64,000 nucleotides of DNA from a phage, in the NCBI GenBank assembly GCA_036253055.1, contig GCA_036253055.1_4124.1; one strand, 5' to 3'. The notes beneath the pieces are model-generated. The model was given only the letters and a program-made list of their open reading frames with translations, did not search any database and was not told the origin of the DNA. Below are positions 1,522 to 16,947 of the stretch, one piece after another (the stretch's first letter is position 1; the number at the start of each line of letters is the position of its first letter). The position numbers and the translations under genes are program-made.

Positions 1522-1770
1522 AGGGACTCCCTTGAAAATAATATCAATCATATAATATATGAATTGTATAAAAAGTCAATAACATTTTATTCGTAATACC
1601 CCTTTATCGAAGTCGCTAAGGTTACCCGCCCTTTAGCCCCCTACGCATTTTGCCATAGTCCAATCCCTTTTATTTTAAAAAAGTCAAGGGATTACCTATG
1701 CATTTTTTTAACGCATTATTTTAAAAACGCCTTGACTTTTTTCTGAATCAGTACTAGATCCCTTTACGCA

Positions 1771-2866: not shown

Positions 2867-2966
2867 GGTGAATCTCCTAACTTTGTGGGCCGTCGCACCA
2901 TTGCCGCCCTACGAGATACATTATTGCAGTACTGATATACTTTGTCAATACTTTTTCTATTAAAAT

Positions 2967-3182
2967 TTATTTACAGAACTGTAGCCCGACTGTGTTCGGA
3001 TAGTACACACATCTTTCACGCTTACCGCTAAACGCAGATATCCAGGATAATTTGTATGCCACTGGTTCCGGTGCAAGAGGATTATTTGAATAATCGAGAA
3101 CTTTAACAATTAAACGGTCCCCAACATACCAGCCAGTTGACTCTTTGATACGGTCGATAATTTCTTGTTTGGTTAACGCCAT
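2967..3182 (-). CDS. hypothetical protein
   Basis: Track start 3215 is a GTG inside the UTR hairpin; ATG 3180-3182 preferred; start uncertain. Confidence 0.4.
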   Translation of the reverse strand: MALTKQEIIDRIKESTGWYVGDRLIVKVLDYSNNPLAPEPVAYKLSWISAFSGKRERCVYYPNTVGLQFCK

Positions 3183-3399
3183 TTTATATCTCGCTCTTTT
3201 GGAGGTGGGCTGCACTATTGCCGCCCTACGAGATACATTATCTCAGTACTGATATACTTTGTCAATACTTTTTTTGAAATAGTTTTGAGTACTGGCATTA
3301 CATCCACCAGCAGATAGTTACTCACCGTTATTAACTATCTTATAGATACTTCTCTGCACCCTGTGGGCTAGTTTTTGTCTATGCGTATATAATAGCAAA

Positions 3400-3429
3400 G
3401 GGACTGACCGGAGTCAATCCCTTTTTTTT
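3400..3429 (-). terminator. hairpin plus T-run (intrinsic terminator-like), overlapping a minus-strand promoter -35
   Basis: GGGACTGAC-CGGA-GTCAATCCC then TTTTTTTT; same element at 5326-5347, 8188-8209, 12213-12232. Confidence 0.5.
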
Positions 3430-3440
3430 ATTCTTTTTTG

Positions 3441-3641
3441 TTAGATGATTCTCCAATCTTCTACCAGGATTTTAATATACCGTACCAGTGATTCGAGTGA
3501 TTCCACTTCCCGATAATCGGTAGCCGTTTGCACTGTACAAGTACAGCCGATCAAGCCATTGCCAAGCTCTTTGATCTGTACATCGATGCAGTTGGCTTTT
3601 GCTTCATTCAGTACTGCAACCAATTCGTTAGCGATTGACAT
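3441..3641 (-). CDS. hypothetical protein
   Basis: 66 aa; SD AGGAG; verified by hand translation. Confidence 0.55.
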   Translation of the reverse strand: MSIANELVAVLNEAKANCIDVQIKELGNGLIGCTCTVQTATDYREVESLESLVRYIKILVEDWRII

Positions 3642-3729
3642 AATGTTTTACTCCTAAAGGTGCGGGAGAACTATTCCCCCGCTCTATGTAAAACATTATA
3701 CATTATCTTGTAGTACTGTCAAATAGTTT

Positions 3730-3987
3730 TTATGAAATATCTTCGATATAGTCGGCCCATGTCATTTGTTCAGTACTATCTAGTGCACCAGGATTATTTG
3801 GATCAAACCATTCGCCATCCCCTAAGTACATTGCAGCCGCTACCGCTTTATAGCCATTATAGGCGTTATTCCACTGCATAGCACGATAGATACGGCCTTT
3901 GATTGGTGTCTGTACTGGTAATGTTTTATGGTCTTCTACGTAGGCCATAGCTTGAGGATTTACCCGATATTGTGTGAACTGTTCCAT
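3730..3987 (-). CDS. hypothetical protein
   Basis: Track start is the promoter TTGACA read as TTG; ATG 3985-3987 used. Confidence 0.5.
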   Translation of the reverse strand: MEQFTQYRVNPQAMAYVEDHKTLPVQTPIKGRIYRAMQWNNAYNGYKAVAAAMYLGDGEWFDPNNPGALDSTEQMTWADYIEDIS

Positions 3988-4062
3988 TATGTTTCCCCTT
4001 GTAGTTAGTAAAGTTATTACATCAGTACTATCACGCATTGTCAATAGTACTGAAATAAAACT

Positions 4063-4287
4063 TTAGATTAGATTATTGATGCCGTTGATGGTAGACTCGC
4101 TTTCTTCTTTCTCCCATTGGCGGTAATACTTCCATGCTTCATGATAGGTGGCGATCAGTTCATCTTTTTGATCCTGAGTACATGCCAGTACTGAATCACT
4201 GTAAGCGGTGTTATAGATAGAATCAAATGATTTCTTCTCTTCTGCCAGGGTAGCTACTTCCCGCATCAGTTCATCAAAGTTAGCCAT
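4063..4287 (-). CDS. hypothetical protein
   Basis: 74 aa; SD AAGGAG. Confidence 0.55.
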   Translation of the reverse strand: MANFDELMREVATLAEEKKSFDSIYNTAYSDSVLACTQDQKDELIATYHEAWKYYRQWEKEESESTINGINNLI

Positions 4288-4370
4288 TTTAGTACTCCTT
4301 ATTAGTGGGGGAGGATATCTCCCCCTATGTAAAACATTATACTTTGTTTTACTTACAATGCAAGTACTTT

Positions 4371-4562
4371 TTAAATTTTATTTCCGATATAGTCCGGCCT
4401 GTTCTTTTCGGTCATACGCTTAAGCATTTTTTGCATATGGCTTATTGCTTGTAGTGTATCCTCTTCCAGCGATGAATCAAGATAATCAGGATCATTCTTC
4501 ACCTTACAATGATTATGATAGCGTAGTACTGCCAGTACTTTTTTAACTTCTTCTACTGTCAT
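4371..4562 (-). CDS. hypothetical protein
   Basis: 63 aa; ATGA overlap with upstream gene 4559..4831. Confidence 0.5.
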   Translation of the reverse strand: MTVEEVKKVLAVLRYHNHCKVKNDPDYLDSSLEEDTLQAISHMQKMLKRMTEKNRPDYIGNKI

Positions 4563-4831
4563 AATAAGTATTCCACTTCGTTTGCTTTCAGGTTAGTATC
4601 AATCATCAGTGGTTTTTTGTAGTCCACAAAACGATTAGTTTTCTCGATAGCGAAGCCCATATAATCCAGTTTGCTTACAGTACATTCATTCTTAAAAACT
4701 TCTTTCGCTGCATTGATGGCTGATTCAATTGATAACCGCCCATCTAAATTAATGTTACCAAATGATCCACCAGCAGAAGTAGGATTACCGTTCATATCTT
4801 TAATAATCATAGTAGCGGAGTAGCTGGACAT
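4559..4831 (-). CDS. hypothetical protein
   Basis: 90 aa; SD AAAGGAAAC. Confidence 0.55.
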   Translation of the reverse strand: MSSYSATMIIKDMNGNPTSAGGSFGNINLDGRLSIESAINAAKEVFKNECTVSKLDYMGFAIEKTNRFVDYKKPLMIDTNLKANEVEYLL

Positions 4832-4915
4832 AATTTTGTTTCCTTTTATTGGTGGGGAGAGCTATTCTCCCCTTGATGTAAACTATTATACAGTACTGAT
4901 ATACTTTGTCAATAC

Positions 4916-5137
4916 TTAATTACGTTTAAAATGATATGTACCGTTATCATCCTGTACGCCCCATACTGATTTACCATCAACACCAGTGAAGCCGGATTGT
5001 AATTCAATATGGAAACCGTTAGCATCAACGACGAAAACTTTTTTATTTTCATCCCGATAGCATTGATATTCTTCACCTGCTTTAAATGCTGCATCATTCA
5101 GAAGATTTGAAGCGTGAACGCAGGTCATAGTAGTCAT
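4916..5137 (-). CDS. hypothetical protein
   Basis: Track N-terminus MFYIERGK is translated promoter/hairpin; start moved to ATG 5135-5137 (SD AAGGAA). Confidence 0.5.
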   Translation of the reverse strand: MTTMTCVHASNLLNDAAFKAGEEYQCYRDENKKVFVVDANGFHIELQSGFTGVDGKSVWGVQDDNGTYHFKRN

Positions 5138-5361
5138 CGTCTTGATTCCTTTTAGTACCAGGGAGAACCATTTCCCCCTCTCGATATAAAACATTATACG
5201 CTCATTGAGATAGTTTGCAAGTACTTTTTATAAAATAGTTTTCAGTACTGAATACTTATATAATAGATACACTTCCGCACCCTATGGGTCAGTGAGTTAT
5301 CTCTCAATGAATATATAATAGCAAAGGGACTGACTGGAGTCAATCCCTTTTTTAATCTTTT

Positions 5362-5946
5362 TTATCGTGTTATAGTTATCGCGTTAACATCACGTTTTTT
5401 ATAGTACTGATTCCAGATATTGCGGGTTAAACCGTAATCAAGTACTTTAATCAAGCCGTTGCGATCCTGGCCGATATTCTGTTTTCTGATATCTCTTATC
5501 GTTAGTGTGGATAATGTATCATCAACGTGATTGAGAGCATCAGCGAAATGGTGATGGCGTTCTACCGTATTACGTTTAATATTGTACTTTAACTCATTGC
5601 ACGCGTTTACATGCTTTACACTGCCTTTGCTTGCAGTACTCAAACGATCCATAACAATAAACAGATTATCAGGATCGCATAAATGCATATGCACTTTAGC
5701 AAAGTACTGTTTAAGGTGCGGACGGTCATAATCTAAAAAATTCCATACCTTACATTCAGTTTCATTTTGTTCTACACCCGCATCACAATTCGCGACCTTA
5801 ATCACTAACCGATCATTTAAAGCGAATACAATACGGGAAGAACCCGCACCGACGATCTCCAGTCCAGCTAACCGACAAGCTGAAAGGATCTCTTTGTTGG
5901 TTTCCATTGCATGAAGTGAACGGATGAATTTAGTATAGTTACGCAT
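5362..5946 (-). CDS. protein kinase-like protein (Ser/Thr kinase fold)
   Basis: Gly-rich loop GAGSSRIVFA, VIKV lysine, catalytic-loop-like DIRKQN, DYG (DFG-like); start moved to ATG 5944-5946 (SD AAGGAG); track start was TTG. Confidence 0.6.
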   Translation of the reverse strand: MRNYTKFIRSLHAMETNKEILSACRLAGLEIVGAGSSRIVFALNDRLVIKVANCDAGVEQNETECKVWNFLDYDRPHLKQYFAKVHMHLCDPDNLFIVMDRLSTASKGSVKHVNACNELKYNIKRNTVERHHHFADALNHVDDTLSTLTIRDIRKQNIGQDRNGLIKVLDYGLTRNIWNQYYKKRDVNAITITR

Positions 5947-5977
5947 TGTGTTGACTCCTTGAGTTAATGAAACTATA

Positions 5978-6220
5978 TTACAGTACTTTACTATCAATGG
6001 CAACTACTTTTTTTACTTGAACTGCGTGGAATACTTCACTCGTATTTTTAGTACTGAATACTTTTGCCGTACCTTGTTCGACCGCAATACGATAGCGACC
6101 GTTAACGTCCACCATATTGATAAAGTCCGGTGTACTGAATGGAGTTACCCGGCATTTAAGAACGGTTAACAGTTCCACCAGCGTTGTAGTCTCTTTGATA
6201 CGTTTTTCTAAAGTAATCAT
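5978..6220 (-). CDS. hypothetical protein
   Basis: Track start is promoter TTGACA read as TTG; ATG 6218-6220 used. Confidence 0.45.
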   Translation of the reverse strand: MITLEKRIKETTTLVELLTVLKCRVTPFSTPDFINMVDVNGRYRIAVEQGTAKVFSTKNTSEVFHAVQVKKVVAIDSKVL

Positions 6221-6273
6221 TTTGTTTTCCCCGTGTTGGTATGCATTCATAGTACTAAAACATTTGAGTACTG

Positions 6274-6528
6274 TCAACGTGATATTAGTTTTATTTTTTT
6301 ATTGTATTGTTGGTGTTCATATAGATTAATTTTTCCAGTACTCTCGATCACTATTCTATTGTTAGTGTCTACATCGATAACACGTAGTTTCCCGTTGCTT
6401 AACTTCCTGGGTAATAGACTACCATTAATAAACTCATTAGCAAGCTGTACGGCCTTTGTGATGATTCTCTGTGGGGCTTTATAGTGTACCCGTAATACAT
6501 TATCGTTTGATAGTTGAACCTTAATCAT
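6274..6528 (-). CDS. hypothetical protein
   Basis: 84 aa; ATG 6526-6528. Confidence 0.5.
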   Translation of the reverse strand: MIKVQLSNDNVLRVHYKAPQRIITKAVQLANEFINGSLLPRKLSNGKLRVIDVDTNNRIVIESTGKINLYEHQQYNKKIKLISR

Positions 6529-6590
6529 TTTGTTTATCCTATAAAAAAGGCGGGAACTATTCCCGCCGTGTTGTTAGTACTGCAAAGTTA

Positions 6591-6986
6591 TTAGATAACC
6601 TGGCGGCGTTTACTGTATACTGTTACACGGTTTCCTTTACGGTCATGACGAATCTCTTTCTGGTTACGAATCAGTTCACTTGGACGCTTAAGGTTTGCCA
6701 GGTGATCCGCGTGAGTCCATGCATTTGCGTTAACTGTAACTTCAATATCAGAACCTTTCAAAAAGTCATCTTGAGCGTTCAGTACTTCAGCCAGTTCTTG
6801 AGCTTTCTTCAGTTCTGCTTCAGTAAGTACTGGTTCAGGTGAATTCACAATATCAGAGATCTCTTTGAACTGTACCGCCCAGCGTTGTCCTTTCGGTGCA
6901 TCTTTGCCCATGTCTTTAAATGTTTCACCTTCTTCACGGGCAACGATGCGAGCTTGTTCACGGGTAGCGAAGAATTTAGTAATCAT
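6591..6986 (-). CDS. hypothetical protein, paralog of 19008..19274
   Basis: Shares FATREQARIVAR..GxTFKDMG..RWAV and C-terminal HDRKGNRVTVYS with 19008..19274; start uncertain (6995 or 6986). Confidence 0.5.
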   Translation of the reverse strand: MITKFFATREQARIVAREEGETFKDMGKDAPKGQRWAVQFKEISDIVNSPEPVLTEAELKKAQELAEVLNAQDDFLKGSDIEVTVNANAWTHADHLANLKRPSELIRNQKEIRHDRKGNRVTVYSKRRQVI

Positions 6987-7085
6987 GGTGTACATCCTAT
7001 TAGTTAAGTTAATTAGTACTACAAGTTAGAGTCTATTATAAAGTACTATCTGGGCAATGTCAAATAGTACTTTAAATGGATTCTA

Positions 7086-7409
7086 TTACATGTCTTTCTT
7101 ACGTTTTACATCGTAGTAACGAACTGTAATTTCTTTGTTGATCTCTTCCTCGATGCGGTGAATAACTTTTTCTTTCGGGTTGAAACCTATTACAGTTTCT
7201 TTAATGATCTCCAAGCCCGTGTATTCGCCTTGTGTACCGTAACCGTAAGTAAAGGTTTCATGTCCCAGGTCTTCCCAGCGGTCACCAATCAATGCAGACA
7301 CGTAGCATGAGTGGTAAGTATTGCCGTGGCTATCAGTCCACCGATTAACTTTAATGTCAAAGGAGGTTACAATTTTCAATTCGACTTTCTGGGTAAGGAT
7401 CATAGTCAT
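7086..7409 (-). CDS. hypothetical protein, paralog of 14147..14470
   Basis: Shares WTDSxGNTYHSC..FTYGY motif with 14147..14470. Confidence 0.55.
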   Translation of the reverse strand: MTMILTQKVELKIVTSFDIKVNRWTDSHGNTYHSCYVSALIGDRWEDLGHETFTYGYGTQGEYTGLEIIKETVIGFNPKEKVIHRIEEEINKEITVRYYDVKRKKDM

Positions 7410-7496
7410 TTTAATTTCTCTCTTTTTGTTAGGAGGGGAACCATTCCCCTCACTTGATGTAAACTATTATACAGTACTAAGATACTTTGTCAATAC

Positions 7497-7631
7497 TTAT
7501 TTGTTTTCTTTTCGTAATTTCTTTTCAGCTTCAACTACATTACGATTTGTGCAAACCACTTCATCGGATAAATCTAACTTCCAGCCAGCCAGGGGATTGG
7601 TTGCTTTTTTAGTGTTGTTTGCTGCTTTCAT
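7497..7631 (-). CDS. small basic protein (44 aa), paralog of 13042..13188
   Basis: Not in track (<60 aa); hand-translated MKAANNTKKATNPLAGW...; SD AAGGAAAC; promoter module upstream. Confidence 0.45.
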   Translation of the reverse strand: MKAANNTKKATNPLAGWKLDLSDEVVCTNRNVVEAEKKLRKENK

Positions 7632-7698
7632 GATGTTTCCTTATTAATTAAGATGTAAACTATTATACAGTACTAAAAACTATTGTCAAACTATTTTA

Positions 7699-7899
7699 TC
7701 AAATTGTTTCCCATTTCATGTTACCCGCTTTACGCTGTGCAACAGGAATAAACATGTTATTAATGTTACTAATATAACCGACCTGTAAGTCACGCTGTGA
7801 ACCATACGCCCGACTTGCTGCATTTTTAGCACCGCGTTCTGATTTATAAACGCCGCTGGATACTGTAAATCCTACTACACCGAAAGTAAAATGTTTCAT
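7699..7899 (-). CDS. hypothetical protein
   Basis: 66 aa; SD GAGGAA. Confidence 0.5.
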   Translation of the reverse strand: MKHFTFGVVGFTVSSGVYKSERGAKNAASRAYGSQRDLQVGYISNINNMFIPVAQRKAGNMKWETI

Positions 7900-8223
7900 T
7901 TTGTATTCCTCTTTGTGGTTGATGTAAGTATTATACTCGTTTACTTGGTATTGTCAAACTATTTTATCAGGGGAGGTTTTCGTATGTCTTACTCCTGGAC
8001 TACTTAACGGGGAGTTACTTGTTTCGTTCCCCGTCCTGATGTAAAACATTATACGCTTATCATGATACTTTGCAAGTACTTTTTAAAAAATAGTTTTCAG
8101 TACTTGATAGTACTAGCCACCAGCATATAATAGATACATTTATGCACCCTGTGGGTTAGATTGTTTCTGTGCATATATAATAGCAAAGGGACTGACCGGA
8201 GTCAATCCCTTTTTTAAATCTTT

Positions 8224-8373
8224 TTAAACTTGTTTTGGGTTGCGATATGTGATAGCGTTCGGGTACATTTGTTTAATGTTATTCCATGCCTGGTTAACAT
8301 TGTAACCACTTGATCGAATCAGTTGGTTACTACCGACACCTTGAAACACTACTTCAAATAAGAATTCTTTCAT
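8224..8373 (-). CDS. small hypothetical protein (49 aa)
   Basis: Not in track; hand-translated; SD GAGGTGA; ATGA overlap with 8370..8543. Confidence 0.4.
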   Translation of the reverse strand: MKEFLFEVVFQGVGSNQLIRSSGYNVNQAWNNIKQMYPNAITYRNPKQV

Positions 8374-8543
8374 GCTTTCACCTCGCTATCTGCTTTGCCT
8401 TTACGCCAGGCCGTTGCTAATTGTTCGCGTTGCCATAAGTCGAGTGATACGTAAAGTTTTGCATTATCACCCTTCGGATATTCGCCAGTAGTACCAATCC
8501 GATAAAACAGATCTTTCAGTACTGATAATTCTACTTGGATCAT
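8370..8543 (-). CDS. small hypothetical protein (57 aa)
   Basis: Not in track; SD AGGAG; stop overlaps next start. Confidence 0.45.
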   Translation of the reverse strand: MIQVELSVLKDLFYRIGTTGEYPKGDNAKLYVSLDLWQREQLATAWRKGKADSEVKA

Positions 8544-8632
8544 TGTATTACTCCTGATTGTGTTAGTACTTCTACGATGGCATGAATGATCATAAGTACA
8601 GCTAACACAACAATCATCGGATTCATTTGCAT
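8540..8632 (-). CDS. hydrophobic micro-protein (30 aa, single TM)
   Basis: Hand-translated MQMNPMIVVLAVLMIIHAIVEVL...; SD AGGAG 8 nt upstream; coupled to downstream gene. Confidence 0.35.
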   Translation of the reverse strand: MQMNPMIVVLAVLMIIHAIVEVLTQSGVIQ

Positions 8633-8649
8633 AAGCTGTACTCCTTCTA

Positions 8650-8862
8650 TTAATCTTTCAGCCAATGATCTTGAATGAATTTTTCACAGAATCCCTGTTT
8701 CATAGATTCTAACAGGCGTTCACGGTGAGCGGCGGCATATTGCTCAGTACTATGCGTTACGCCAGGTTGATAACGTGAAACACCGTCCGGTCCGATATAT
8801 TGAACATCCCACGGTTTTTCGTTAGTATCAGACCATTTACGAACGATTAGTTGACCTTGCAT
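8650..8862 (-). CDS. hypothetical protein
   Basis: 70 aa; SD GAGGAAA; promoter and hairpin 8880-8939. Confidence 0.55.
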   Translation of the reverse strand: MQGQLIVRKWSDTNEKPWDVQYIGPDGVSRYQPGVTHSTEQYAAAHRERLLESMKQGFCEKFIQDHWLKD

Positions 8863-8879
8863 GTTTCTTTCCTCTTAGT

Positions 8880-8899
8880 GGGGAGAATCATTTCTCCCC
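8880..8899 (-). promoter_or_regulatory. conserved 5'UTR hairpin (GGGGAGAA-loop-TTCTCCCC) between promoter and SD
   Basis: Perfect 8-bp inverted repeat; recurs with small variations downstream of most early promoters. Confidence 0.55.
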
Positions 8900-8911
8900 T
8901 TCATGTAAACT

Positions 8912-8939
8912 ATTATACAGTACTAGATTACATTGTCAA
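8912..8939 (-). promoter_or_regulatory. sigma70-like early promoter (TTGACA, 16 nt, TG-extended TATAAT)
   Basis: Minus strand TTGACA..CAGTACTGTATAAT; one of about 40 near-identical modules in the window. Confidence 0.6.
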
Positions 8940-8945
8940 TAGTTT

Positions 8946-9269
8946 TTATTCACCTTGTTTGAATTTAGTTTTCTCCATTGATTCCATGATTGCAACCAAT
9001 ACAGCATGGATCTCACTTAACGCGGCATCACTAAAAGCATTAATGAATAGGCAATCATTCTCGCGAATATTTTTAATGTACTTATCAGCAGTGGTTGCGA
9101 ATTCATTCAACGGCAGATCAAATGCTTTATCCCATAATGGATGGCGTAACTGTAACAGTACTGGATTATCACGGTCACCAGGTGAGAAAGTGCCTGTAAT
9201 GAAACATACACCAGGGATACTTTCGAATTGACAACGAACTTCTTTTGTGATAGTAGTATGAATATACAT
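8946..9269 (-). CDS. hypothetical protein
   Basis: 107 aa; SD GAGGA. Confidence 0.5.
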   Translation of the reverse strand: MYIHTTITKEVRCQFESIPGVCFITGTFSPGDRDNPVLLQLRHPLWDKAFDLPLNEFATTADKYIKNIRENDCLFINAFSDAALSEIHAVLVAIMESMEKTKFKQGE

Positions 9270-9296
9270 TTATTTTTATCCTCTATTAAATTAATA

Positions 9297-9485
9297 TTAC
9301 AGTTTATGAATCAATTCTTTATCTAAGCGATAGCGAACATTATTGATTGTAACTGCATTGTTTTTAATGCTACGCTGTACAGGTCCACCAGCAATAACAA
9401 ACGTTGCCTTATTGCCCCGAACGATGATAGCACTTCCAGGATTACCAAAATCATCTTGTACTAAAATACTTGATAAGTTTTGCAT
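9297..9485 (-). CDS. hypothetical protein
   Basis: 62 aa; SD AAGGAAAG; promoter and hairpin 9503-9561. Confidence 0.5.
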   Translation of the reverse strand: MQNLSSILVQDDFGNPGSAIIVRGNKATFVIAGGPVQRSIKNNAVTINNVRYRLDKELIHKL

Positions 9486-9533
9486 TTGTCTTTCCTTGTA
9501 GTGGGGAGAACTATTCTCCCCTTCATGTAAACT

Positions 9534-9561
9534 ATTATACAGTACTTAAAACTAAATGCAA
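9534..9561 (-). promoter_or_regulatory. sigma70-like early promoter (TTGCAT, 16 nt, TATAAT) for gene 9297..9485
   Basis: Minus strand TTGCAT-N16-TATAAT; UTR hairpin GGGGAGAACTATTCTCCCC at 9503-9521. Confidence 0.6.
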
Positions 9562-9564
9562 GTA

Positions 9565-9921
9565 CTAGGATAAAATCATTATAGGATATTCACAGTTAAT
9601 CAGTACTTCAAAACCAAAACTTTCATACCATTCTTTAAGATTAAACTCGTTATCTTCTCCCGTATCGCATTCTAAGATGATACAATCTGAATCATCGGCG
9701 GCATCAATAAAGGCATTCATTAATTCAGTACCTTCACCGTTACCGCGATTATCGGGATCAACATAAAGAGAATCAATAAACGCTACACGATCATAATCAA
9801 GATCCGGTGCAACAATGCCACGTTTAACAAACCAGTACTGCAATTGTGCTACTTTGCCTTGTACTTGATAGCCAGTGATCTCACCATTGTCTGTAGTACG
9901 CGTGATATGTTGTATACCCAT
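9565..9921 (-). CDS. GNAT-family N-acetyltransferase-like protein
   Basis: Motif-A-like DNRGNGEGTELMNAFIDAA; 118 aa; SD GAGGA. Confidence 0.5.
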   Translation of the reverse strand: MGIQHITRTTDNGEITGYQVQGKVAQLQYWFVKRGIVAPDLDYDRVAFIDSLYVDPDNRGNGEGTELMNAFIDAADDSDCIILECDTGEDNEFNLKEWYESFGFEVLINCEYPIMILS

Positions 9922-9984
9922 GATTTCAATCCTCAGTTAAGATATAAAATATTATACACTAACTAACAGCACTGTCAATACTTT

Positions 9985-10242
9985 TTATCTCATAGATCTA
10001 TGCCAACAATTACGGGGATTGCGTTTGAATATGCTATCATGATCAGCCTGGCAAGTGATGCAGTACTTACACCCCTTAACGGCCAGGCGGCGATTCTCAG
10101 GGATTTTATCGCCGCAGTCGAGGCAATGTATCAGTGATTCTATTTGTGCGTTAATTTGCGTTCTAGCGTGGTTTACAGCGGCCTGAATCACTGCGTTAAT
10201 CTCGTCTTGCTCGGCCCCGTCATTCGCGAATCCAACAGCCAT
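9985..10242 (-). CDS. TraR/DksA-family C4 zinc-finger protein
   Basis: CLDCGDKIPENRRLAVKGCKYCITCQ fits the TraR/DksA C4 zinc-finger pattern. Confidence 0.6.
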   Translation of the reverse strand: MAVGFANDGAEQDEINAVIQAAVNHARTQINAQIESLIHCLDCGDKIPENRRLAVKGCKYCITCQADHDSIFKRNPRNCWHRSMR

Positions 10243-10405
10243 TATTTTAACCTCATTATAAAAATACTATAGTACTGTAATGCTACAATAATACTACTAG
10301 TACTGATTTTATTCAAACCGTATGATACTACATATTCCCCAGCATTACCACGAATGGTAACGCCTTTGTACTTTCTATATAATTTCAACTACGTTTATTG
10401 CCTTT

Positions 10406-10476
10406 GATCAAGATTTGATCAGAATTATACGCCTTATGCTAAATTGATCCAGTACTTTTTTGATCATTTATTGATC
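10406..10476. promoter_or_regulatory. cluster of five TTGATC (GATC) sites in 71 bp
   Basis: GATC at 10406, 10417, 10446, 10462, 10473, each preceded by TT. Confidence 0.45.
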
Positions 10477-10571
10477 GATATTATATAGTTACATTTGTGC
10501 ACCCTATGGGTTAGTGACGTTCTCGTCTTGATGTAAGTATTATGCCAGTACTGGCATAATTTGTCAATAGA

Positions 10572-10769
10572 TTATTTTAACTTTTTTCTGTCATTGATTA
10601 ATGCTTTCAGTACTATACTAATGATCTGCAATGATTCATCAATGACTATAAAATTATTTTCTTTCATTAGATGATAGTTACCATTGATTGTATATTCTAA
10701 GGAGTACTGTTTACGTTTAATTTTTGATAATGTTTCTATTTGTTTTTGTACTGATTTCATGCTAATCAT
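10572..10769 (-). CDS. hypothetical protein
   Basis: 65 aa ORF. Confidence 0.45.
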   Translation of the reverse strand: MISMKSVQKQIETLSKIKRKQYSLEYTINGNYHLMKENNFIVIDESLQIISIVLKALINDRKKLK

Positions 10770-10874
10770 TGTTAAACGTCCTGTAACGCATTCTAACGAG
10801 TTAAACGGTTTAGTACTGGCATTGTATAGGGTAAAGGATTAAAGCCCACCAGCGTTAACCAGTGGGCTATAATC

Positions 10875-11018
10875 TTACATCTTGCGGATAATCTTAACAG
10901 TATCTTTCACCGATTTACCGTCTTGCTGACATTGTTCGATCATCGCGTATTGTTCTGCGGTCAGATCCTCGCCAGTTTTTGCCAGTACTGCGTCGATGAA
11001 TGAATCCAGTGCGATCAT
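10875..11018 (-). CDS. small hypothetical protein (47 aa)
   Basis: Not in track; hand-translated MIALDSFIDAVLAKTGEDL... Confidence 0.4.
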   Translation of the reverse strand: MIALDSFIDAVLAKTGEDLTAEQYAMIEQCQQDGKSVKDTVKIIRKM

Positions 11019-11117
11019 TTTGTTTCTCTCTTAGGTTAAGTTAACTACTGTTTATAAAACTTATTATACAGTACTATCAAACTATGTCAATATCTTTAAT
11101 AGTACTGGTAATATATT

Positions 11118-11297
11118 TTAGCGGTAGTCGTCGTATGCTTTATTCACCTGGCGAATGTAACTTTCAAAGGCTTCGTCTACCGTTTCATACTCCCGAACAT
11201 AATCACCATAGGAAACTACATACATCCCTTTTTGATCTTCAAACGTCATGATGATAGAATCCAGGCCGATGATTTCAGTTTTTGCGATAATAGCCAT
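11118..11297 (-). CDS. small hypothetical protein (59 aa)
   Basis: Not in track (59 aa); SD AAGGAA; hand-translated MAIIAKTEIIG... Confidence 0.45.
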   Translation of the reverse strand: MAIIAKTEIIGLDSIIMTFEDQKGMYVVSYGDYVREYETVDEAFESYIRQVNKAYDDYR

Positions 11298-11380
11298 TTT
11301 AGTATTCCTTAGTAGTGTAGTTGATAAAAGTTATTATGCCAGTACTATCAATCATTGTCAATAGTACTGTGATAATATTT

Positions 11381-11593
11381 TTAGTTAATGATAGTCAGTG
11401 TAAAATTGTAATCCCCTGCCTGGTATAGTACTTTGTCGCCGAATGTACCAACACGTTTCATATTGCAATAGATACCCATAACACTTTTTACATCTTTGAT
11501 ATTCCGAACGCCTGTGATATCCTTGTTGAAATTTTCATGTTCAGAAAATAAAACTTGTTTTGCATTTTTCAGTACAGTGCAGATATTAGCCAT
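11381..11593 (-). CDS. hypothetical protein
   Basis: 70 aa. Confidence 0.5.
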   Translation of the reverse strand: MANICTVLKNAKQVLFSEHENFNKDITGVRNIKDVKSVMGIYCNMKRVGTFGDKVLYQAGDYNFTLTIIN

Positions 11594-11686
11594 TTTGATT
11601 TCTCTCTGTTTGTGGGGAGAACTATTCTCCCCTTGATGTAACTTATTATACAGTACTATAATCTATTGTCAAACTATTTTTTAATA

Positions 11687-12028
11687 TTATTCAAAATCTT
11701 CTGGACCGGACTGATAATCATCTTCACCGTATGCACTTTCTAACTTCTCGCCAGTGTGATCATCAGTTAGTGAGTCATCCTCATAGTTCACGTCTACGCC
11801 TACAATGTAAAACTGGCTATCGTCTGGATCATTGAAATTAATTTTCTGAATGTTTACAATAACGGTATTGATGCCCAGGACACCGCCATCAGCAGTTACA
11901 AAGTACTGATATTTTTCACAACCGCCTGAATTGAAACCGTAATTAATTTCGGCCCGACCATCATTTAAACGCAGTGCCTGGGCGATGATTTCATTTTCAA
12001 AGTTAGATTGAGCAATTGAGATAGTCAT
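11687..12028 (-). CDS. highly acidic hypothetical protein (candidate DNA mimic)
   Basis: 113 aa; D/E-rich C-terminus DDSLTDDHTGEKLESAYGEDDYQSGPEDFE; SD AAGGAAAC. Confidence 0.5.
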   Translation of the reverse strand: MTISIAQSNFENEIIAQALRLNDGRAEINYGFNSGGCEKYQYFVTADGGVLGINTVIVNIQKINFNDPDDSQFYIVGVDVNYEDDSLTDDHTGEKLESAYGEDDYQSGPEDFE

Positions 12029-12238
12029 GATTTGTTTCCTTATTACCAGGGGAAACCGTTTCCCCTTTCGATGTAAAACATTATACGCTTATTGAGATAG
12101 TTTGCAAGTACTTTTTAAAAATAGTTTTCAGTACTCAAACATTATATAATAGATACACTTATGCACCCTGTGGGCTAGTGAGCTATCTCTCAATGAATAT
12201 ATAATAGCAAAATGGCTGACCGGAGTCAACCACTTTTT

Positions 12239-12382
12239 TCATTTATTTTTAGCTTTTAGAATCGCCGCCTTTCGCGTCATGCCTTGCTTGATGTATTCCT
12301 GTACTTTCGCTTTACGTGCATTCGCTTTATTTGCTTTCGTAAACGCCGAACAACTTTTATAATTTAAGCCTGTTGGATTCAT
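12239..12382 (-). CDS. small basic protein (47 aa)
   Basis: Not in track; K/A-rich; hand-translated. Confidence 0.35.
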   Translation of the reverse strand: MNPTGLNYKSCSAFTKANKANARKAKVQEYIKQGMTRKAAILKAKNK

Positions 12383-12472
12383 TTAAATCACCATAAAGAA
12401 TAGATAGGTTACTAACAATGCCGCGATCAATGCACCGACCAGGGCCGAACTATAGTAAGCTAATGATTTCAT
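12383..12472 (-). CDS. hydrophobic micro-protein (29 aa, single TM)
   Basis: Hand-translated MKSLAYYSSALVGALIAALLVTYLFFMVI; ATGA overlap with upstream gene. Confidence 0.3.
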   Translation of the reverse strand: MKSLAYYSSALVGALIAALLVTYLFFMVI

Positions 12473-12621
12473 TTTTTAGCCTGAAAGTAATGTTTAATTT
12501 GTGCGGCGGTCAGTGCACAATTACGCAGGAAGTTTTCTGTATAACTGCGGCGAGTACTGAAAGAGAATTGACCTTTGCCGTTACCGATAGTAACATCAAA
12601 CCGAGCGTTGTATTGTTTCAT
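12469..12621 (-). CDS. small hypothetical protein
   Basis: Start moved to ATG 12619-12621; track N-terminus is translated UTR hairpin. Confidence 0.45.
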   Translation of the reverse strand: MKQYNARFDVTIGNGKGQFSFSTRRSYTENFLRNCALTAAQIKHYFQAKK

Positions 12622-12707
12622 TTTGATTCTCCTGTTATTGGGGAGAACCATTTCTCCCCTCTATGTAAAACATTATACGCGTTTAAAAACTAATTGCAAG
12701 TATTATT

Positions 12708-12959
12708 TTAAACTTTGTATTTTAAACTTTGTGCGACTAATTTCGCACGGTCAATCATATTCTGCCATTTTTGGATCTCTTCTGGTAGAAAACGATATTC
12801 ACCAATTACAATAGTGATACACTGGTCAGCCTTGTCGATGTATGTGGTATCAATCTCTACTTGAACGGGTACACGTTCGCCGTACTCAGTCCCTGGGATA
12901 ATGCAATCATTATCATAAGTTACAGTAGTAGCAGTGTCTTTGATTAAAATTGTTTCCAT
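12708..12959 (-). CDS. hypothetical protein
   Basis: 83 aa; SD GAGGAAAG. Confidence 0.55.
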   Translation of the reverse strand: METILIKDTATTVTYDNDCIIPGTEYGERVPVQVEIDTTYIDKADQCITIVIGEYRFLPEEIQKWQNMIDRAKLVAQSLKYKV

Positions 12960-13041
12960 TATACTTTCCTCGTTAGGTGTAAGGGGAACGTTTTCCCCTT
13001 CATGTAAACTATTATACAGTACTAAAAACTAATTGCAAGTA

Positions 13042-13188
13042 CTATTTTTTAGATTTACGCAAACTTTCTACCATCTCAGGAGTAAGGCCAGGCGGGTAGG
13101 AAACCACTTCATCAACGAAACGTAAAGGGAATACCCCAGCGAAAGGTGAACGTGCTTTCTTAGTATTACTCTTTTTTGATGCTTTCAT
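13042..13188 (-). CDS. small basic protein (48 aa), paralog of 7497..7631
   Basis: Not in track; hand-translated MKASKKSNTKKARSPFAGV...; shares MKA..N.KKA..P.AG N-terminus with 7497..7631. Confidence 0.45.
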   Translation of the reverse strand: MKASKKSNTKKARSPFAGVFPLRFVDEVVSYPPGLTPEMVESLRKSKK

Positions 13189-13257
13189 TTCATATTCCTT
13201 AATTAGTGGGGAGAATCATTTCTCCCCTTCATGTAAAACATTATACGCGTTTAAAAA

Positions 13258-13467
13258 CTAATTGCAAGTACTATTTGAAAGTAAATGCTCATACGCTGCA
13301 TTAACTACGTTTTCAATAACCGACTGTACAGAAAGATCCCCCACGTCCTGGCTATAGTAGAAATCGCTTACAGTGGTGTCATCGTATGCAAATACTTTAC
13401 CAGGTACTGCATCAATCACATACATATTAACCTTTAAGATGTCGATCTTATCCTGTACAGTAAGCAT
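13258..13467 (-). CDS. hypothetical protein
   Basis: 69 aa; 5-nt gap from upstream gene. Confidence 0.5.
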   Translation of the reverse strand: MLTVQDKIDILKVNMYVIDAVPGKVFAYDDTTVSDFYYSQDVGDLSVQSVIENVVNAAYEHLLSNSTCN

Positions 13468-13472
13468 ATTAA

Positions 13473-13745
13473 TTAACCTTTTAAGTACTGGCTTAAGTAG
13501 TCTTGTTGATCTTCGGTGATTGCAGCCATCTTCCCTAGTACTGGATTGATGATATAATCCCCTGTAACGTCCTGTAACGCATTCTCAGGCGGTTTAACGG
13601 CTGGGGTAGCCATAGCCATTGCCTGGACTTGTTCGACGCTGTAACGCTCATAAAGGCGGCATTCTTCCGGTGTTAACATAGCATCAGTACGCTTCATCGG
13701 TTTAATGATGCTTTCGATCTCATTCAGTACTTGATTAACGTTCAT
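13473..13745 (-). CDS. hypothetical protein
   Basis: 90 aa; SD GGGGA. Confidence 0.5.
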   Translation of the reverse strand: MNVNQVLNEIESIIKPMKRTDAMLTPEECRLYERYSVEQVQAMAMATPAVKPPENALQDVTGDYIINPVLGKMAAITEDQQDYLSQYLKG

Positions 13746-13796
13746 GGTATAATCCCCAATATAAGCGGCCTAAATCGACCGCTAACGATGTTTTGA

Positions 13797-14066
13797 TTAA
13801 TAGGTGTATGGTTGACGCTCAAACAATGAATAGACGTTATACGCCCCGCTTATGGGCTTCGCTGGTAAATCAATTTTATATTGTTCACGCTTAAAGATAA
13901 TAAAACGGCAATTGTTTTTAACATCAAAATTGATTGAACGTTCCAGGAGTTTACCATCGTGCACAAATACAAGATAACCGCTTGGTACTTGTTTTGTAGA
14001 ACTGGTTGCAACCATAGACCGACGAACATGTGTACCTGCATCGATTAAAGTACTGATATTTTTCAT
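13797..14066 (-). CDS. hypothetical protein
   Basis: 89 aa; SD AGAGGA. Confidence 0.5.
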   Translation of the reverse strand: MKNISTLIDAGTHVRRSMVATSSTKQVPSGYLVFVHDGKLLERSINFDVKNNCRFIIFKREQYKIDLPAKPISGAYNVYSLFERQPYTY

Positions 14067-14146
14067 TTTACTATCCTCTTAAGTTGATTTAATTTCTTTC
14101 TCCTATGCAGACACTATATCAAAGTATCTGCATAAAGTAAAGCTAA

Positions 14147-14470
14147 TTAAAGATCTTTTTTGCGTTTAACATTCTGTACAGTACAATGCAACGGGATATT
14201 AAGATCATTGCACAAACGATAGAGGGAGGTTTCAACAGTATCAAGCCCGTCTACTGATTCCTTTAAGAGTGATACCGCCGTTTGTTGATATGCATCCTCA
14301 TAGCCATAAGTAAATGATTCAACCGCCAGATCATTCAAGCCGTTATCCAGTTCAACGCTTACATGACAAGAATGATAAGTATTGCCATATGAATCAGTCC
14401 AACGTTTACCGTCAACATTGATTGCATGGATTGCAGCCAGGGAAACGGTGTTGATGATAGTTTTAGCCAT
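14147..14470 (-). CDS. hypothetical protein, paralog of 7086..7409
   Basis: WTDSYGNTYHSC..FTYGY motif; SD AAGGAA. Confidence 0.55.
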   Translation of the reverse strand: MAKTIINTVSLAAIHAINVDGKRWTDSYGNTYHSCHVSVELDNGLNDLAVESFTYGYEDAYQQTAVSLLKESVDGLDTVETSLYRLCNDLNIPLHCTVQNVKRKKDL

Positions 14471-14561
14471 TTTAGTATTCCTTAAATTAATATGTGTCGT
14501 CTTGATAAAATCTATTATGCCAGTACTATCAAACTATGTCAATAGTACTGTGATAATATTT

Positions 14562-14774
14562 TTACTTACTTTCTTTCGCTGCTTTATATGTTGCCACTGC
14601 CATAACCACATCAGCACGAACAAAGTTTTTAACCGTGTCACTGTAATAATTGATCGCATCATCTATATCTGCGAACGTCCGATACATACCGCACCAAGAT
14701 ACTTTATAACCTTCTTTCACTTCTACCAGTTTAACGATAGTCTTGTTAACTTTGATTTTAGTAATGATAGCCAT
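14562..14774 (-). CDS. hypothetical protein
   Basis: Start moved to ATG 14772-14774; track N-terminus is translated UTR hairpin. Confidence 0.5.
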   Translation of the reverse strand: MAIITKIKVNKTIVKLVEVKEGYKVSWCGMYRTFADIDDAINYYSDTVKNFVRADVVMAVATYKAAKESK

Positions 14775-14861
14775 TTTAGTTTCCTCATTATCAGGGAGAA
14801 CCATTTCTCCCCTTGATGTAATGTATTATACTTTATTCGATTTACTTTGCAAGTACTTTTT

Positions 14862-15089
14862 TTAATTTAATTCATCCAGGCAAAGGATACGCTCAACGCC
14901 CAAATCAGTTAAACTAATCGACGGCACTTGATAGGTTTCAATGTATGCTACACTTGCCCACTGACCGAACTCATTAACGGCCCAGGTATTCATTGCATTT
15001 TGCAATTCCGCACCTGCCTTGTTAGTAATGACTGCAACTACTTGTTCGTTGCCAGTAGTACCAGATACGCGAGTAATGATAATAGCCAT
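14862..15089 (-). CDS. hypothetical protein
   Basis: Track N-terminus MFYIERGK is translated promoter; start moved to ATG 15087-15089. Confidence 0.5.
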   Translation of the reverse strand: MAIIITRVSGTTGNEQVVAVITNKAGAELQNAMNTWAVNEFGQWASVAYIETYQVPSISLTDLGVERILCLDELN

Positions 15090-15319
15090 TGTTTTGATTC
15101 CTTTGATTTGGAAGGAGAACCGTTTCCCCCTCTCGATGTAAAACATTATACGCTAATCTCTTAATCGTGCAAGTACTTTTTATTACTTTTTGCAAAATAC
15201 TTTAAACGCTCTCAATCGCATTCTAACGACCTTAACGCCACCAGCTAGGGCGATGTATCAGATAATCAGTTTAATGCGTTAGAATCGATTCTAGGCGGTG
15301 CTGGTGGACTGGAATACTA

Positions 15320-15350
15320 CAGACACAAAAAAGCCCACTGTTTAAGGTGG
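15320..15350 (-). terminator. rho-independent terminator after gene 15375..15857
   Basis: Minus strand AGCCCACC-loop-GGTGGGCT followed by TTTTTTGTGT. Confidence 0.6.
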
Positions 15351-15374
15351 GCTAGTGATTCAGTACTTTAATTG

Positions 15375-15857
15375 TTATGCTTCAACTTTGCGATGAGCTT
15401 CGATCCATTCCTCGCGAGTCATACCGCTTTCTTTGATAGCGTCCAGTACTACCGCAATGCAGTTACCGCGTACAGGAATCAAATGTTCTTCCCCGTTATC
15501 AAGGACAACAGTAACACGTTCTTGAATCCATTTTTTAGGCTTAGATTCCGGCTTATCTTCACCGTACTTAACCGCCAGGGCTTTATGTGCCATTTCAATA
15601 ACCACTTCCAGATCTAAACCAGACACCGCCGCCTGAATACTTTCTATTGTTGCTTGCAGTTCTGCTTCACGGGCTTTTTTCTGTTCTTCCAGTTCTGCTA
15701 CCTTTTTGGCTTGTAGTTCTTTCGCTTCACTGTAAGCAATGTTAAAATTGTTGCGTACTGCTTTCATGGTATCATTATCCAGGTCAGCCAGCAATTCAGC
15801 AGCAATCACAGTATCGTTAGAAATCAGTGCTTTCAGAAATGATTTTACATTAGCCAT
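15375..15857 (-). CDS. possible H-NS-like nucleoid-associated protein
   Basis: N-terminal coiled coil (ELQAKKVAELEEQKKAREAELQ); C-terminus IPVRGNCIAVVLDAIKESGMTREEWI loosely resembles the H-NS DNA-binding region; start at ATG 15855-15857 (SD GAGGA). Confidence 0.35.
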   Translation of the reverse strand: MANVKSFLKALISNDTVIAAELLADLDNDTMKAVRNNFNIAYSEAKELQAKKVAELEEQKKAREAELQATIESIQAAVSGLDLEVVIEMAHKALAVKYGEDKPESKPKKWIQERVTVVLDNGEEHLIPVRGNCIAVVLDAIKESGMTREEWIEAHRKVEA

Positions 15858-16049
15858 TTTATAAATCCTCAATTAAAGTTTAAGTTAGTTTATCAAAGTT
15901 TGTTTGACGTGTCCAGTTTTTCATTCGACTTACTGGCGGTCTACTTAATGTTCCCCGTCTTGATGTAATACATTCTACGCTTTTCCCTGGTAATGTCAAC
16001 TACTTTTTTAAAACTATTTTCAAAGTATACCAGTACTACGATACTACAA

Positions 16050-16085
16050 AAACAAAAAAGCCCACTGTATAAGTGGGCTAGTGAT
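16050..16085 (-). terminator. rho-independent terminator after gene 16097..16396
   Basis: Minus strand AGCCCAC-loop-GTGGGCT followed by TTTTTTGTTTTTG. Confidence 0.6.
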
Positions 16086-16096
16086 TCAGTACTATA

Positions 16097-16396
16097 TTAT
16101 AAACAATTAATTACGCCAGTGAATGTAACTTTCTCTGTATCCATTACAGTAACCGAACCGCGTTTACTTTTTGCATCGTAATAGATGGTCGTGCTACCCT
16201 GATCATCTTCTTCATGGTACGGGCCATTAGCAAACATTGCAGGGGCCAGTTCCAGGGATTTGGTAACGATCTCAGCCGTTTCCTCGTTAGTCATTGCAAC
16301 AGTGCACTGAATGAATTTTTCTTTCTGTACATCAACGGAAGCGTTAACAGCGAAAGAGGAAACAGATAAAGCCAGGGCGATGATTGCAGTTTTCAT
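16097..16396 (-). CDS. secreted protein (signal peptide)
   Basis: N-terminus MKTAIIALALSVSSFAVNA; SD AAGGA; terminator downstream at 16050-16085. Confidence 0.55.
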   Translation of the reverse strand: MKTAIIALALSVSSFAVNASVDVQKEKFIQCTVAMTNEETAEIVTKSLELAPAMFANGPYHEEDDQGSTTIYYDAKSKRGSVTVMDTEKVTFTGVINCL

Positions 16397-16506
16397 TTGT
16401 ATATCCTTTGTTAGTACTAGGGAGTATTCCCGATTAGATGTAAAACATTATACGCGTTTAAAAACTATTATCAAGTACTTTAATATAAAAGTATTTGAAA
16501 AAAAGT

Positions 16507-16863: not shown

Positions 16864-16947
16864 TGTAAAACTCCTTATTAGTGGGGAGAACCATTTCCCC
16901 CTTGATGTAAACTATTATATAGTACTGGAAACTATTTGCAAGTACTT

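Follow-up and report, generated by a model that had tools for sequence, protein, structure and literature searches.

AGTACT, a palindromic hexamer enriched across a RaK2-like jumbo coliphage genome and held at fixed positions in predicted early promoters: a candidate operator-like signal

AGTACT is a palindromic hexamer that recurs throughout a stretch of 64,000 nucleotides of phage DNA (NCBI GenBank assembly GCA_036253055.1, contig GCA_036253055.1_4124.1), the whole of which is referred to here as the window, and it forms part of a promoter module at positions 8880–8939 that is taken as the focal site. The hexamer is strongly enriched, is selected at the level of the DNA, is symmetric beyond its own six bases, occupies fixed registers within an array of sigma-70-like promoters and is conserved across the clade of RaK2-like jumbo phages. 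Tentatively, and with somewhat less than even confidence, AGTACT is interpreted as an operator-like site for a putative clade-conserved, dimeric DNA-binding protein, which would label the DNA as phage and would probably turn off the early promoters.

A 5-kb piece around the focal site shares 91–94% nucleotide identity with the Escherichia jumbo phages JP4, phAPEC6, PBECO4, G17 and others, and the window belongs to an Asteriusvirus (PBECO4/121Q/G17-like), a RaK2-like, T4-related jumbo coliphage (myovirus) of ca. 350 kb. PBECO4 was assembled as the complete relative for comparison, the window corresponding to approximately 130.8–194.8 kb of that genome. Comparisons with RaK2, GAP32 and Eneladusvirus cover parts of each genome, and gene calls within the window are mechanical (longest open reading frame (ORF), greedy).

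Within the window, 267 copies of AGTACT with the consensus (c)AGTACT(g) are dispersed over positions 1750–64000, against 20.9 ± 5.1 in dinucleotide-preserving shuffles, none of the 100 shuffles coming near the observed count. Intergenic DNA contains 103 sites (9.3/kb), and the remaining 164 (61%) lie inside ORFs at 3.1/kb, using all three frames (69/37/58). These coding copies exceed the expectation of both a synonymous-codon shuffle (37.7 ± 5.5) and a codon-order shuffle (24 ± 4.7). Single-base variants of the hexamer reach 1–2.7 times expectation, and the 24-nt flanks are distinct at all 267 sites, so the enrichment is not the product of repeat hitch-hiking. Together the three shuffles, the variant table and the uniqueness of the flanks rule out an artefact of composition, codon usage or repeats. 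Regionally, the density amounts to 6.25/kb in the terminal repeat described below, 6.4/kb at 21.8–26.1 kb, 2.6/kb in a block of RCC1-like genes and 3.2/kb at 39–64 kb, and the site frequency hardly changes around start codons apart from a dip over the Shine-Dalgarno sequence (SD). The strong enrichment claimed in the preliminary description of this DNA is therefore borne out by the composition-matched shuffles. Its statement that AGTACT stands in nearly every intergenic region is incomplete, given the sites inside ORFs, and the implied view of an essentially promoter or intergenic element is not supported, as most copies are coding, in three frames, and the enrichment takes in late structural and replication genes and four genera. 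Copies in promoters are a special case within this genome-wide feature, set apart by their fixed position.

The symmetry of the signal extends past the hexamer, with C at −1 and G at +1 in 45–46% of sites (background 17%), and apart from these two bases the coding sites carry no flanking information. In PBECO4 the full 8-mer palindrome, CAGTACTG, is present in 191 copies against ca. 3.4 expected (hand calculation from base composition). The strict hexamer, the symmetric flanks and the excess of the 8-mer palindrome point to a reader of double-stranded DNA with dyad symmetry. Two further candidates were rejected. An extended palindrome, CACCAGTACTGGTG, derived from the co-enriched words CACCAG/CTGGTG, fails because these words almost never adjoin AGTACT, their enrichment being related to Chi and to Gly/Pro-rich coding, and a promoter of a phage sigma factor is contradicted by flanks without directional information and by the flat profile at gene starts. 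No LexA box is present in the window. As a separate observation, the palindromic hexamers CCATGG, CAGCTG, AGGCCT and AGCGCT have zero copies in the whole window (ca. 6.7 expected of each) and GATC is mildly under-represented, the usual signature of restriction avoidance, which contrasts with the AGTACT excess.

The enrichment, about tenfold overall, is a property of the clade. The whole PBECO4 genome contains 891 copies versus 118 expected (7.6-fold), or about one per 390 bp, and every 10-kb bin is enriched, with 12–67 sites each, including those of capsid, tail and replication genes. RaK2 (Klebsiella), GAP32 (Cronobacter) and Eneladusvirus (Erwinia) show 6.3–6.9-fold enrichment in conserved replication and structural regions. 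Metagenomic jumbo contigs are 7–23-fold enriched versus a median of 1.3-fold in unrelated viral contigs; here an exact 14-mer scan of IMG/VR gave mostly chance single matches, and loci were then scored by AGTACT density. T4, used as a control, is not enriched (12 copies, 16.7 expected), and 100 kb sampled from E. coli K-12 contain 6 copies (ca. 0.06/kb), a four-fold under-representation, so that the density of the hexamer in the host chromosome is ca. 40–70 times lower than in the phage. In orthologous genes of different genera, at ca. 70% nucleotide identity, 27–40% of sites are conserved in position compared with 12–16% of all hexamers, shared sites number 22–25 against 0.13–0.15 expected under independent placement, and sites that are not shared have been replaced elsewhere. 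Purifying selection thus acts on single sites, and the density as a whole is also selected, with turnover. Enrichment of AGTACT or CAGTACTG is undescribed in the searchable literature, including accounts of RaK2, CBB, Sharanji, UE-S1, ph0011 and G17, an absence that does not amount to proof, and a clade-wide palindromic genome signal with polar exceptions appears not to have been described before.

The focal module (8866–8945, minus strand) is placed to drive a 70-amino-acid (aa) ORF at 8650–8862. In order, it consists of the −35 element TTGACA (8939–8934), a 16-nt spacer ending in tAGTACTG (AGTACT at 8919–8924), the −10 element TATAAT (8917–8912), aGTTTACATgaa, a hairpin at 8899–8880 (GGGGAGAA-atga-TTCTCCCC, 8-bp stem), the SD aagagg and an ATG at 8862. 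The preliminary description had located and dissected this module correctly, the strand being minus. A scan for promoter-like sites (at least 10/12 matches, TTG.., spacer of 16–17) returned 37 sigma-70-like promoters at 1619–21800, every one on the minus strand, and 28 of them harbor AGTACT between the upstream edge of the −35 element and the −10 element. Measured from the first −10 base, the hexamer starts at −7/−8 (16 sites) or at −27 to −31 (16 sites). One register is thus directly upstream of the −10 element and the other overlaps the upstream −35 edge, about two helical turns away. Several promoters carry both registers, 20–22 bp apart, in spacers of otherwise variable sequence. RaK2 uses the same two registers, in 21 and 11 of its 38 promoters, and pair distances of 20–22 bp are over-represented genome-wide (7, 7 and 5 pairs versus 2.3 expected per distance).

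Under the operator interpretation, a putative phage-encoded dimeric protein would bind cAGTACTg sites, and protein at both registers would cover the −35 and −10 elements from one side of the helix, where repressors classically bind. Judging from position only, the bound protein would occlude RNA polymerase and early transcription would be shut off. With ca. 900 copies dispersed over the genome, the protein would accumulate on phage rather than host DNA, where it could serve as a mark of "self" or have a genome-organising role.

Such a protein has to be set against the places where the palindrome is missing. Window positions 1–1618, which contain no site and seven tightly overlapping ORFs of 66–75 aa, form the end of an AGTACT-free block that abuts the boundary of the terminal repeat. 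In PBECO4 and G17 the block at this boundary measures 5.6 kb; beyond it come a 2.6-kb island in which the hexamer has its normal density and then a second AGTACT-free block of 7.6 kb, all with sharp boundaries (116.7–124.3 kb and 126.95–132.5 kb in PBECO4; 335–342 and 345–350 kb in G17). In the second block (PBECO4 116.7–124.3 kb), TGTACT occurs 42 times on the plus strand, equivalent to AGTACA in the sense direction, and not once in the opposite orientation, at a density of 5.8/kb, in three frames and with varied flanks. The block adjoining the repeat (PBECO4 127–132.5 kb) has the opposite variant (12 vs 1), about half of these sites being at homologous positions of paralogous genes. A weaker excess of sense AGTACA reaches to ca. 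99 kb in PBECO4, with the sum of AGTACT and AGTACA remaining roughly constant (ca. 5.5/kb) over 99–124 kb, and in RaK2 an excess of 68 vs 27 is seen downstream of the early region. GC skew at four-fold degenerate sites is positive in one block and negative in the other (+0.20 vs −0.22). All genes around both blocks are on one strand, so the polarity of AGTACA is not set by the direction of transcription alone, which suggests that either the function is partly strand-specific or the palindrome does harm there, a half-functional site nevertheless being required. A non-coding origin in the island between the blocks was rejected, the apparent 624-bp gap consisting of unannotated paralogous small ORFs of ca. 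210 bp.

Several points weigh against an operator bound by a symmetric dimer. The dimer alone accounts neither for these sharply bounded blocks, including the one with AGTACA as its sole form, nor for copies selected inside late structural genes. A search for the reader with Pfam (117 window proteins, genes by the phage sigma factor and genes of the blocks) and with PHROGs returned no DNA-binding candidate. Nine of the 37 promoters are without AGTACT, the fixed registers could be attributed in part to common descent of the modules, and the argument for repression is drawn solely from where the sites lie.

The polarity of AGTACA is the main argument for a rival explanation, considered unlikely, in which a moving machine would read AGTAC(T) on a single strand, as a primosome or primase site, a helicase-loading signal or a signal resembling Chi or the FtsK-orienting polar sequences (KOPS). 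The palindrome would then be the cheapest way of putting the word on both strands, and polar AGTACA would occur where one strand suffices, near a fixed origin or genome end. This would suit the uniform genome-wide distribution, the use of all frames, the density kept through turnover, the opposite variants in two blocks of co-oriented genes, the accompanying flip of GC skew, the RaK2 excess and the constant sum of the two words, and the clade has T4-type primase and helicase genes, T4 itself being without the motif. However, one-sided variants outside the blocks are only 1.7–2-fold enriched versus 7.6-fold for the palindrome, and the 8-mer palindrome is far above the prediction from independent half-words. 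Exclusion of the palindrome from the blocks, as opposed to mere dispensability, is left without explanation, sharp block boundaries are unexpected from fork direction, and about half of the variant sites in one block sit at homologous positions of paralogues. Known primase sites, moreover, are trinucleotides. Over-representation across coding DNA, as in motifs of the Chi/KOPS type, is found for AGTACT; asymmetry or strand bias is not, the hexamer being a palindrome with symmetric flanks, and only the regional AGTACA is polar. A broader and rather improbable synthesis, rated a little above the purely strand-read signal, would have AGTACT and AGTACA forming a strand-aware "self-DNA code" of RaK2-like jumbo phages that is read by a core phage machine, which could be the replisome or primosome, a RecBCD-Chi-like nuclease control or a genome-wide silencer. 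The palindrome would serve both strands and the polar blocks by the repeat would mark a fixed process direction, e.g., an origin. If true, this would be the first virus-encoded equivalent of genome signals of the Chi, KOPS and uptake signal sequence (USS) type.

It is also doubtful that the phage modifies its DNA at AGTACT, e.g., by methylation, a high density of sites being selected so that the mark covers the genome in the manner of GATC and Dam. Palindromic hexamers are typical targets of type II methyltransferases, and one site per ca. 390 bp is similar to the density of a 4-base site. A Dam-like PF05869 methyltransferase of putative specificity is conserved in PBECO4 and RaK2, and RaK2 DNA is reportedly cut only by methylation-tolerant enzymes (PMC3622015). 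On the other hand, the C5 methyltransferase is Dnmt3/HhaI-like and fits the CpG methylation that the same paper reports for RaK2, AGTACT containing no CpG, and GATC is the simplest target to assume for the Dam-like enzyme. Nothing like an AGTACT methylase was found, both methyltransferases examined looking C5/CpG or Dam-like, and the fixed promoter registers would go unexplained. As a restriction–modification target of type II (ScaI-type), the site is 12-fold enriched in the window rather than avoided, with methyltransferases that are again Dam-like and Dnmt3/HhaI-like.

A host protein whose site is exploited or titrated by the phage, e.g., a nucleoid-occlusion factor like SlmA, is very improbable. 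The consensus bound by SlmA, GTGAGTACTCAC, has an AGTACT core and dyad symmetry, like the phage site, and the motif is common to phages of four enterobacterial host genera. The likeness ends at the flanks, which are C/G in the phage and G/C in the SlmA site: G at −1 is found in 15 of 267 sites, a ca. three-fold depletion, with C preferred, and GAGTACTC, TGAGTACTCA and the SlmA 12-mer and 10-mer have no copy in the window. The SlmA site was rejected on these grounds, the G/C flanks that it requires being avoided, and we know of no other E. coli regulator with an AGTACT site.

Finally, the notion that AGTACT is merely a promoter component (an extended −10 or upstream element), its coding copies being cryptic promoters, hitch-hikers or by-products of composition or mutation, is hardly tenable and is largely refuted, since its supports (an intergenic density three times that of coding DNA, the T-15 and G-14 that AGTACTG supplies in promoters with a 17-bp spacer, and modules that form a repeated family) are outweighed by coding sites without promoter-like flanking information, flanks that differ at every site, enrichment that survives all three shuffles, one-base variants that are not enriched, positions conserved between genera above background and a nearly flat start-codon profile.

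The promoter array itself can be described in greater detail. The 37 promoters span 2920–21425 on the minus strand, with the first −35 base at 2948, 3265, 3417, 3722, 4912, 5220, 5343, 6277, 7063, 7493, 7689, 7957, 8075, 8205, 8939, 9978, 10567, 11090, 11361, 11672, 12107, 12229, 12699, 13038, 13267, 14542, 14852, 15999, 16474, 16941, 17202, 17794, 18768, 18886, 19001, 19677 and 21425. A consensus scan found perfect TTGACA-16/17-TATAAT (12/12) at 12 sites, all on the minus strand at 1.8–21.8 kb, and the extended signature TATAAT-nn-TTTACAT occurs in ca. 27 modules. Three designs recur: TTGACA-N16 with cAGTACTG abutting TATAAT; aAGTAC-TTGCAA-N16-gcgTATAAT; and TTGACA-N17 with AGTACTGg before CATAAT or GATAAT, in which the motif provides the TG of an extended −10 element (T-15, G-14). 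Each module has an SD and an ATG within ca. 35–50 nt downstream. The sites are predicted to be promoters of sigma-70 (host RpoD) type that serve an early region of small genes, and each has an SD of its own. The figure of about 40 modules proposed initially was a fair one; "near-identical" was an overstatement, and the hairpin accompanies only ca. 60% of them. The warning that ORF starts are miscalled here was justified, as an ATG formed by TATAAT plus G (yielding MFYIERGK...) and another in the hairpin loop (yielding MVLP...) lengthen several mechanical ORFs.

A hairpin is predicted after 22 promoters, with energies of −9 to −16 kcal/mol. Besides the focal site, promoters with a hairpin in the 5′ untranslated region (5′UTR), all on the minus strand, are found at 2459–2538 (class AGTAC-TTGCAt), 3649–3728 (with TTGACAGTACT overlap), 4290–4369, 4839–4918 (TTGACA ... 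cAGTACTG-TATAAT), 5147–5226 (AGTAC-TTGCAA), 7420–7499 (stem GAGGGGAA/TTCCCCTC, compensatory changes), 8002–8081 (longer hairpin, GACGGGGAAC...CTCCCCGTT), 9488–9567 (two AGTACT sites 20 bp apart), 11599–11678, 12034–12113 (stem AGGGGAAA/TTTCCCCT), 12626–12705 (AATAC-TTGCAA, without AGTACT), 12965–13044 (two AGTACT sites), 13194–13273, 14779–14858, 15099–15178, 16868–16947 (two AGTACT sites), 17721–17800 (stem GCGGGAA/TTCCCGC), 18813–18892 (longer hairpin), 19604–19683 (stem GGTGGGGAA/TTCCCCACT) and 20064–20143. A perfect TTGACA-16-TATAAT promoter with cAGTACTG at 21352–21431 has a different 5′ hairpin, and one isolated module of the same design is situated outside the repeat at 48680–48740 (TTGACA ... 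cAGTACTG-TATAAT, hairpin GGGGATGA/TTCTCATC), both again on the minus strand.

What is conserved in the hairpin is its structure and not its sequence. The 22 hairpins comprise 17 distinct stems, among them GGGGAGAA/TTCTCCCC, GAGGGGAA/TTCCCCTC, GCGGGAA/TTCCCGC and GGTGGGGAA/TTCCCCACT, and all are fully paired (100%) versus 77% when arms are swapped between modules; this test replaced MAFFT/RNAalifold, in which the stems of the modules were not aligned in register. The early promoters of RaK2 have hairpins of unrelated sequence at the equivalent position. The element first described as a conserved palindromic 5′UTR hairpin is hence real as a covarying structure, seen after 22 of 37 promoters, and is not conserved as a sequence. 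A structure kept while its sequence varies speaks for an element that works as RNA (or as a single strand) and against a protein operator. The predicted 5′UTR of the focal module folds at −13.9 kcal/mol (z = −3.9), and eight predicted 5′UTRs gave −12.8 to −14.9 kcal/mol, with z-scores of −1.8 to −3.9 and an unpaired SD. The stem begins 10–14 nt after the −10 element and would thus be within the transcript if initiation takes place at the usual distance. Module hairpins are followed by ACTAA... or ACCAA... with no U-tract and so are not terminators; the only elements qualifying as terminator-like are a hairpin at 6549–6567 and separate AAAGGGATTGACT...CCCTTT elements. Rfam gave no match at the gathering threshold across the window. 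With moderate confidence, the hairpin is predicted to be a 5′-proximal stabiliser of short early mRNAs. If transcription starts at the usual A, the unpaired 5′ leader would be ca. 5–7 nt, longer than ideal for a classical 5′-end protector, a point that counts against this proposal.

Two side observations concern the same elements. Some RaK2 5′UTR hairpins (at ca. 231.3 kb and 228.4 kb) hold CAGTACTG in the stem-loop (GGGATTCAGTACTGAATCCC), an overlap of DNA motif and RNA structure. In the window, a terminator-like hairpin, AAAGGGATTGACTCCGGTCAGTCCCTTT, occurs in four copies on the minus strand (3397–3424, 5323–5350, 8185–8212 and 12209–12236), its stem holding the −35 element (TTGACT) for a downstream TATTAT −10 element to give a combined terminator-promoter unit. 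The same design recurs in RaK2, where it is followed by conserved GCCCACMGGGTGC-like sequences that may be candidate small RNA genes.

The promoter array coincides with a terminal repeat. Bases 1–20,668 of G17 are 100% identical to its own bases 350,150–370,817, i.e., two terminal copies of a 20.7-kb direct repeat, and G17 base 1 aligns to window position 1619 and base ca. 20,668 to ca. 21,780. Terminal redundancies of ca. 20 kb were deduced for G17 from coverage (Korf et al., 2019; PMC6563267), and the relative UE-S1 is described as having long direct terminal repeats of the T5 type ("long-ended T5 type") (PMC12805682). The two identical G17 copies, the coverage and the UE-S1 repeats together indicate that the array, at window positions ca. 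1619–21780 with boundaries placed by homology to G17, corresponds to the long direct terminal repeat (DTR) of the phage. The repeat is dense in small genes with promoters of their own: it has ca. 50 ORFs of 44–203 aa, all on the minus strand, and the 37 promoters. It is predicted to be an early gene array of "host-takeover" type, transcribed by host RNA polymerase. Among the 117 window proteins, Pfam matches include a DksA/TraR zinc finger (ORF 9985–10242), a ParE-like toxin, a CapR homology domain, a GNAT acetyltransferase, a STAND/AAA NTPase and a pyrimidine-dimer glycosylase (DenV), a set consistent with functions in host take-over and anti-defence.

At the right edge of the repeat is an ORF-free control region of ca. 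1.9 kb (20100–22050), containing an 8-bp tandem repeat, TAGCCGTC (ca. 12 copies, 20884–20982), several GGGGAACTATC repeats, an inverted pair of CAGTACTG (21235–21268), a Chi pair and the perfect promoter at 21425; these may be candidate packaging or replication signals. Beyond it, at 22045–26089, minus-strand ORFs of ca. 60 aa recur every ca. 187–190 bp (TRF period 190 at 23323–23752), with a GC skew that is positive despite the strand of the ORFs; few are annotated in PBECO4 and their coding status is uncertain. Ten tandem paralogues of ca. 380–430 aa with RCC1-like beta-propeller repeats follow on the plus strand at 26191–39155, the sole long plus-strand block of the window.

E. coli Chi (GCTGGTGG) is a second over-represented word, with 14 copies in the window versus 0.71 expected, and 22 in PBECO4 versus roughly 2 (hand estimate from base composition). 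The minus-strand copies are at 3304, 4767, 6175, 8117, 9385, 10846, 15238, 21194 and 49204 and the plus-strand copies at 15300, 21206, 32431, 32686 and 32944. Eight minus-strand copies lie in the terminal-repeat region, oriented such that they would stop RecBCD if it came in from the left end of the genome, the first of them 1.7 kb from that end. One plus-strand copy is ca. 570 bp inside the right edge of the repeat, and the copies at 21194 and 21206 form an inverted pair (CCACCAGCacaaGCTGGTGG).

Almost no work exists on how RaK2-like jumbo phages, several of which are under development for therapy, transcribe and manage their genomes, and the architecture of promoters, hairpins and terminal repeat maps the immediate-early programme in concrete terms. 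Of greater importance is the AGTACT signal. Some 900 copies per genome under selection, in four genera, of a word 40–70 times rarer in the host imply an abundant, conserved reader with a genome-wide job, possibly shut-off of early genes, discrimination between phage and host DNA or organisation of replication. The reader should be easily caught with an oligonucleotide bait, the AGTACT-free and AGTACA blocks are natural controls, and AGTACT is a practical metagenome marker for the RaK2-like clade.

Comparable features are known from other systems. In the related jumbo phage CBB, RpoD-like promoters were predicted, partly on the terminal repeat (PMC5259590). The promoters of CBB and GAP32, members of the same clade, resemble those of the window in being TTGACA-N15-17-TATAAT sites clustered among short hypothetical genes, some on the terminal repeat; the 18 listed were obtained via MEME, and AGTACT, fixed registers, 5′ hairpins and a genome-wide motif go unmentioned. 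The pre-early terminal repeat of T5 and the host-takeover module of SPO1 share a long DTR, many tiny co-oriented genes and strong host-sigma promoters and SDs with the window, but their sequences and hosts are unrelated to those of the window phage, and to our knowledge neither is noted for a dispersed palindromic hexamer. The hairpins resemble the 5′-terminal stabiliser stem-loops known from bacterial and phage mRNAs of the ompA and T4 gene 32 type in having a GC-rich stem-loop near the predicted 5′ end, an unpaired SD and a structure kept while the sequence varies, and differ in the predicted unpaired leader of ca. 5–7 nt.

The closest parallels to the proposed logic of one phage protein that covers the genome and represses early promoters are p6 of phi29 and TF1 of SPO1. 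These proteins recognise the shape or modification of DNA, not a strict hexamer, TF1 binding SPO1 early promoters through DNA that contains hydroxymethyluracil (hmU), and no homologue was identified in this analysis. As a short word far above chance throughout a genome, in coding DNA and all frames, with a density kept despite the turnover of sites, AGTACT is comparable to Chi, to USS and DNA uptake sequences (DUS), to KOPS and to GATC/Dam. Chi, USS and KOPS are asymmetric and polar, whereas AGTACT is a perfect palindrome, is denser (2.6–4.2 per kb) and is viral.

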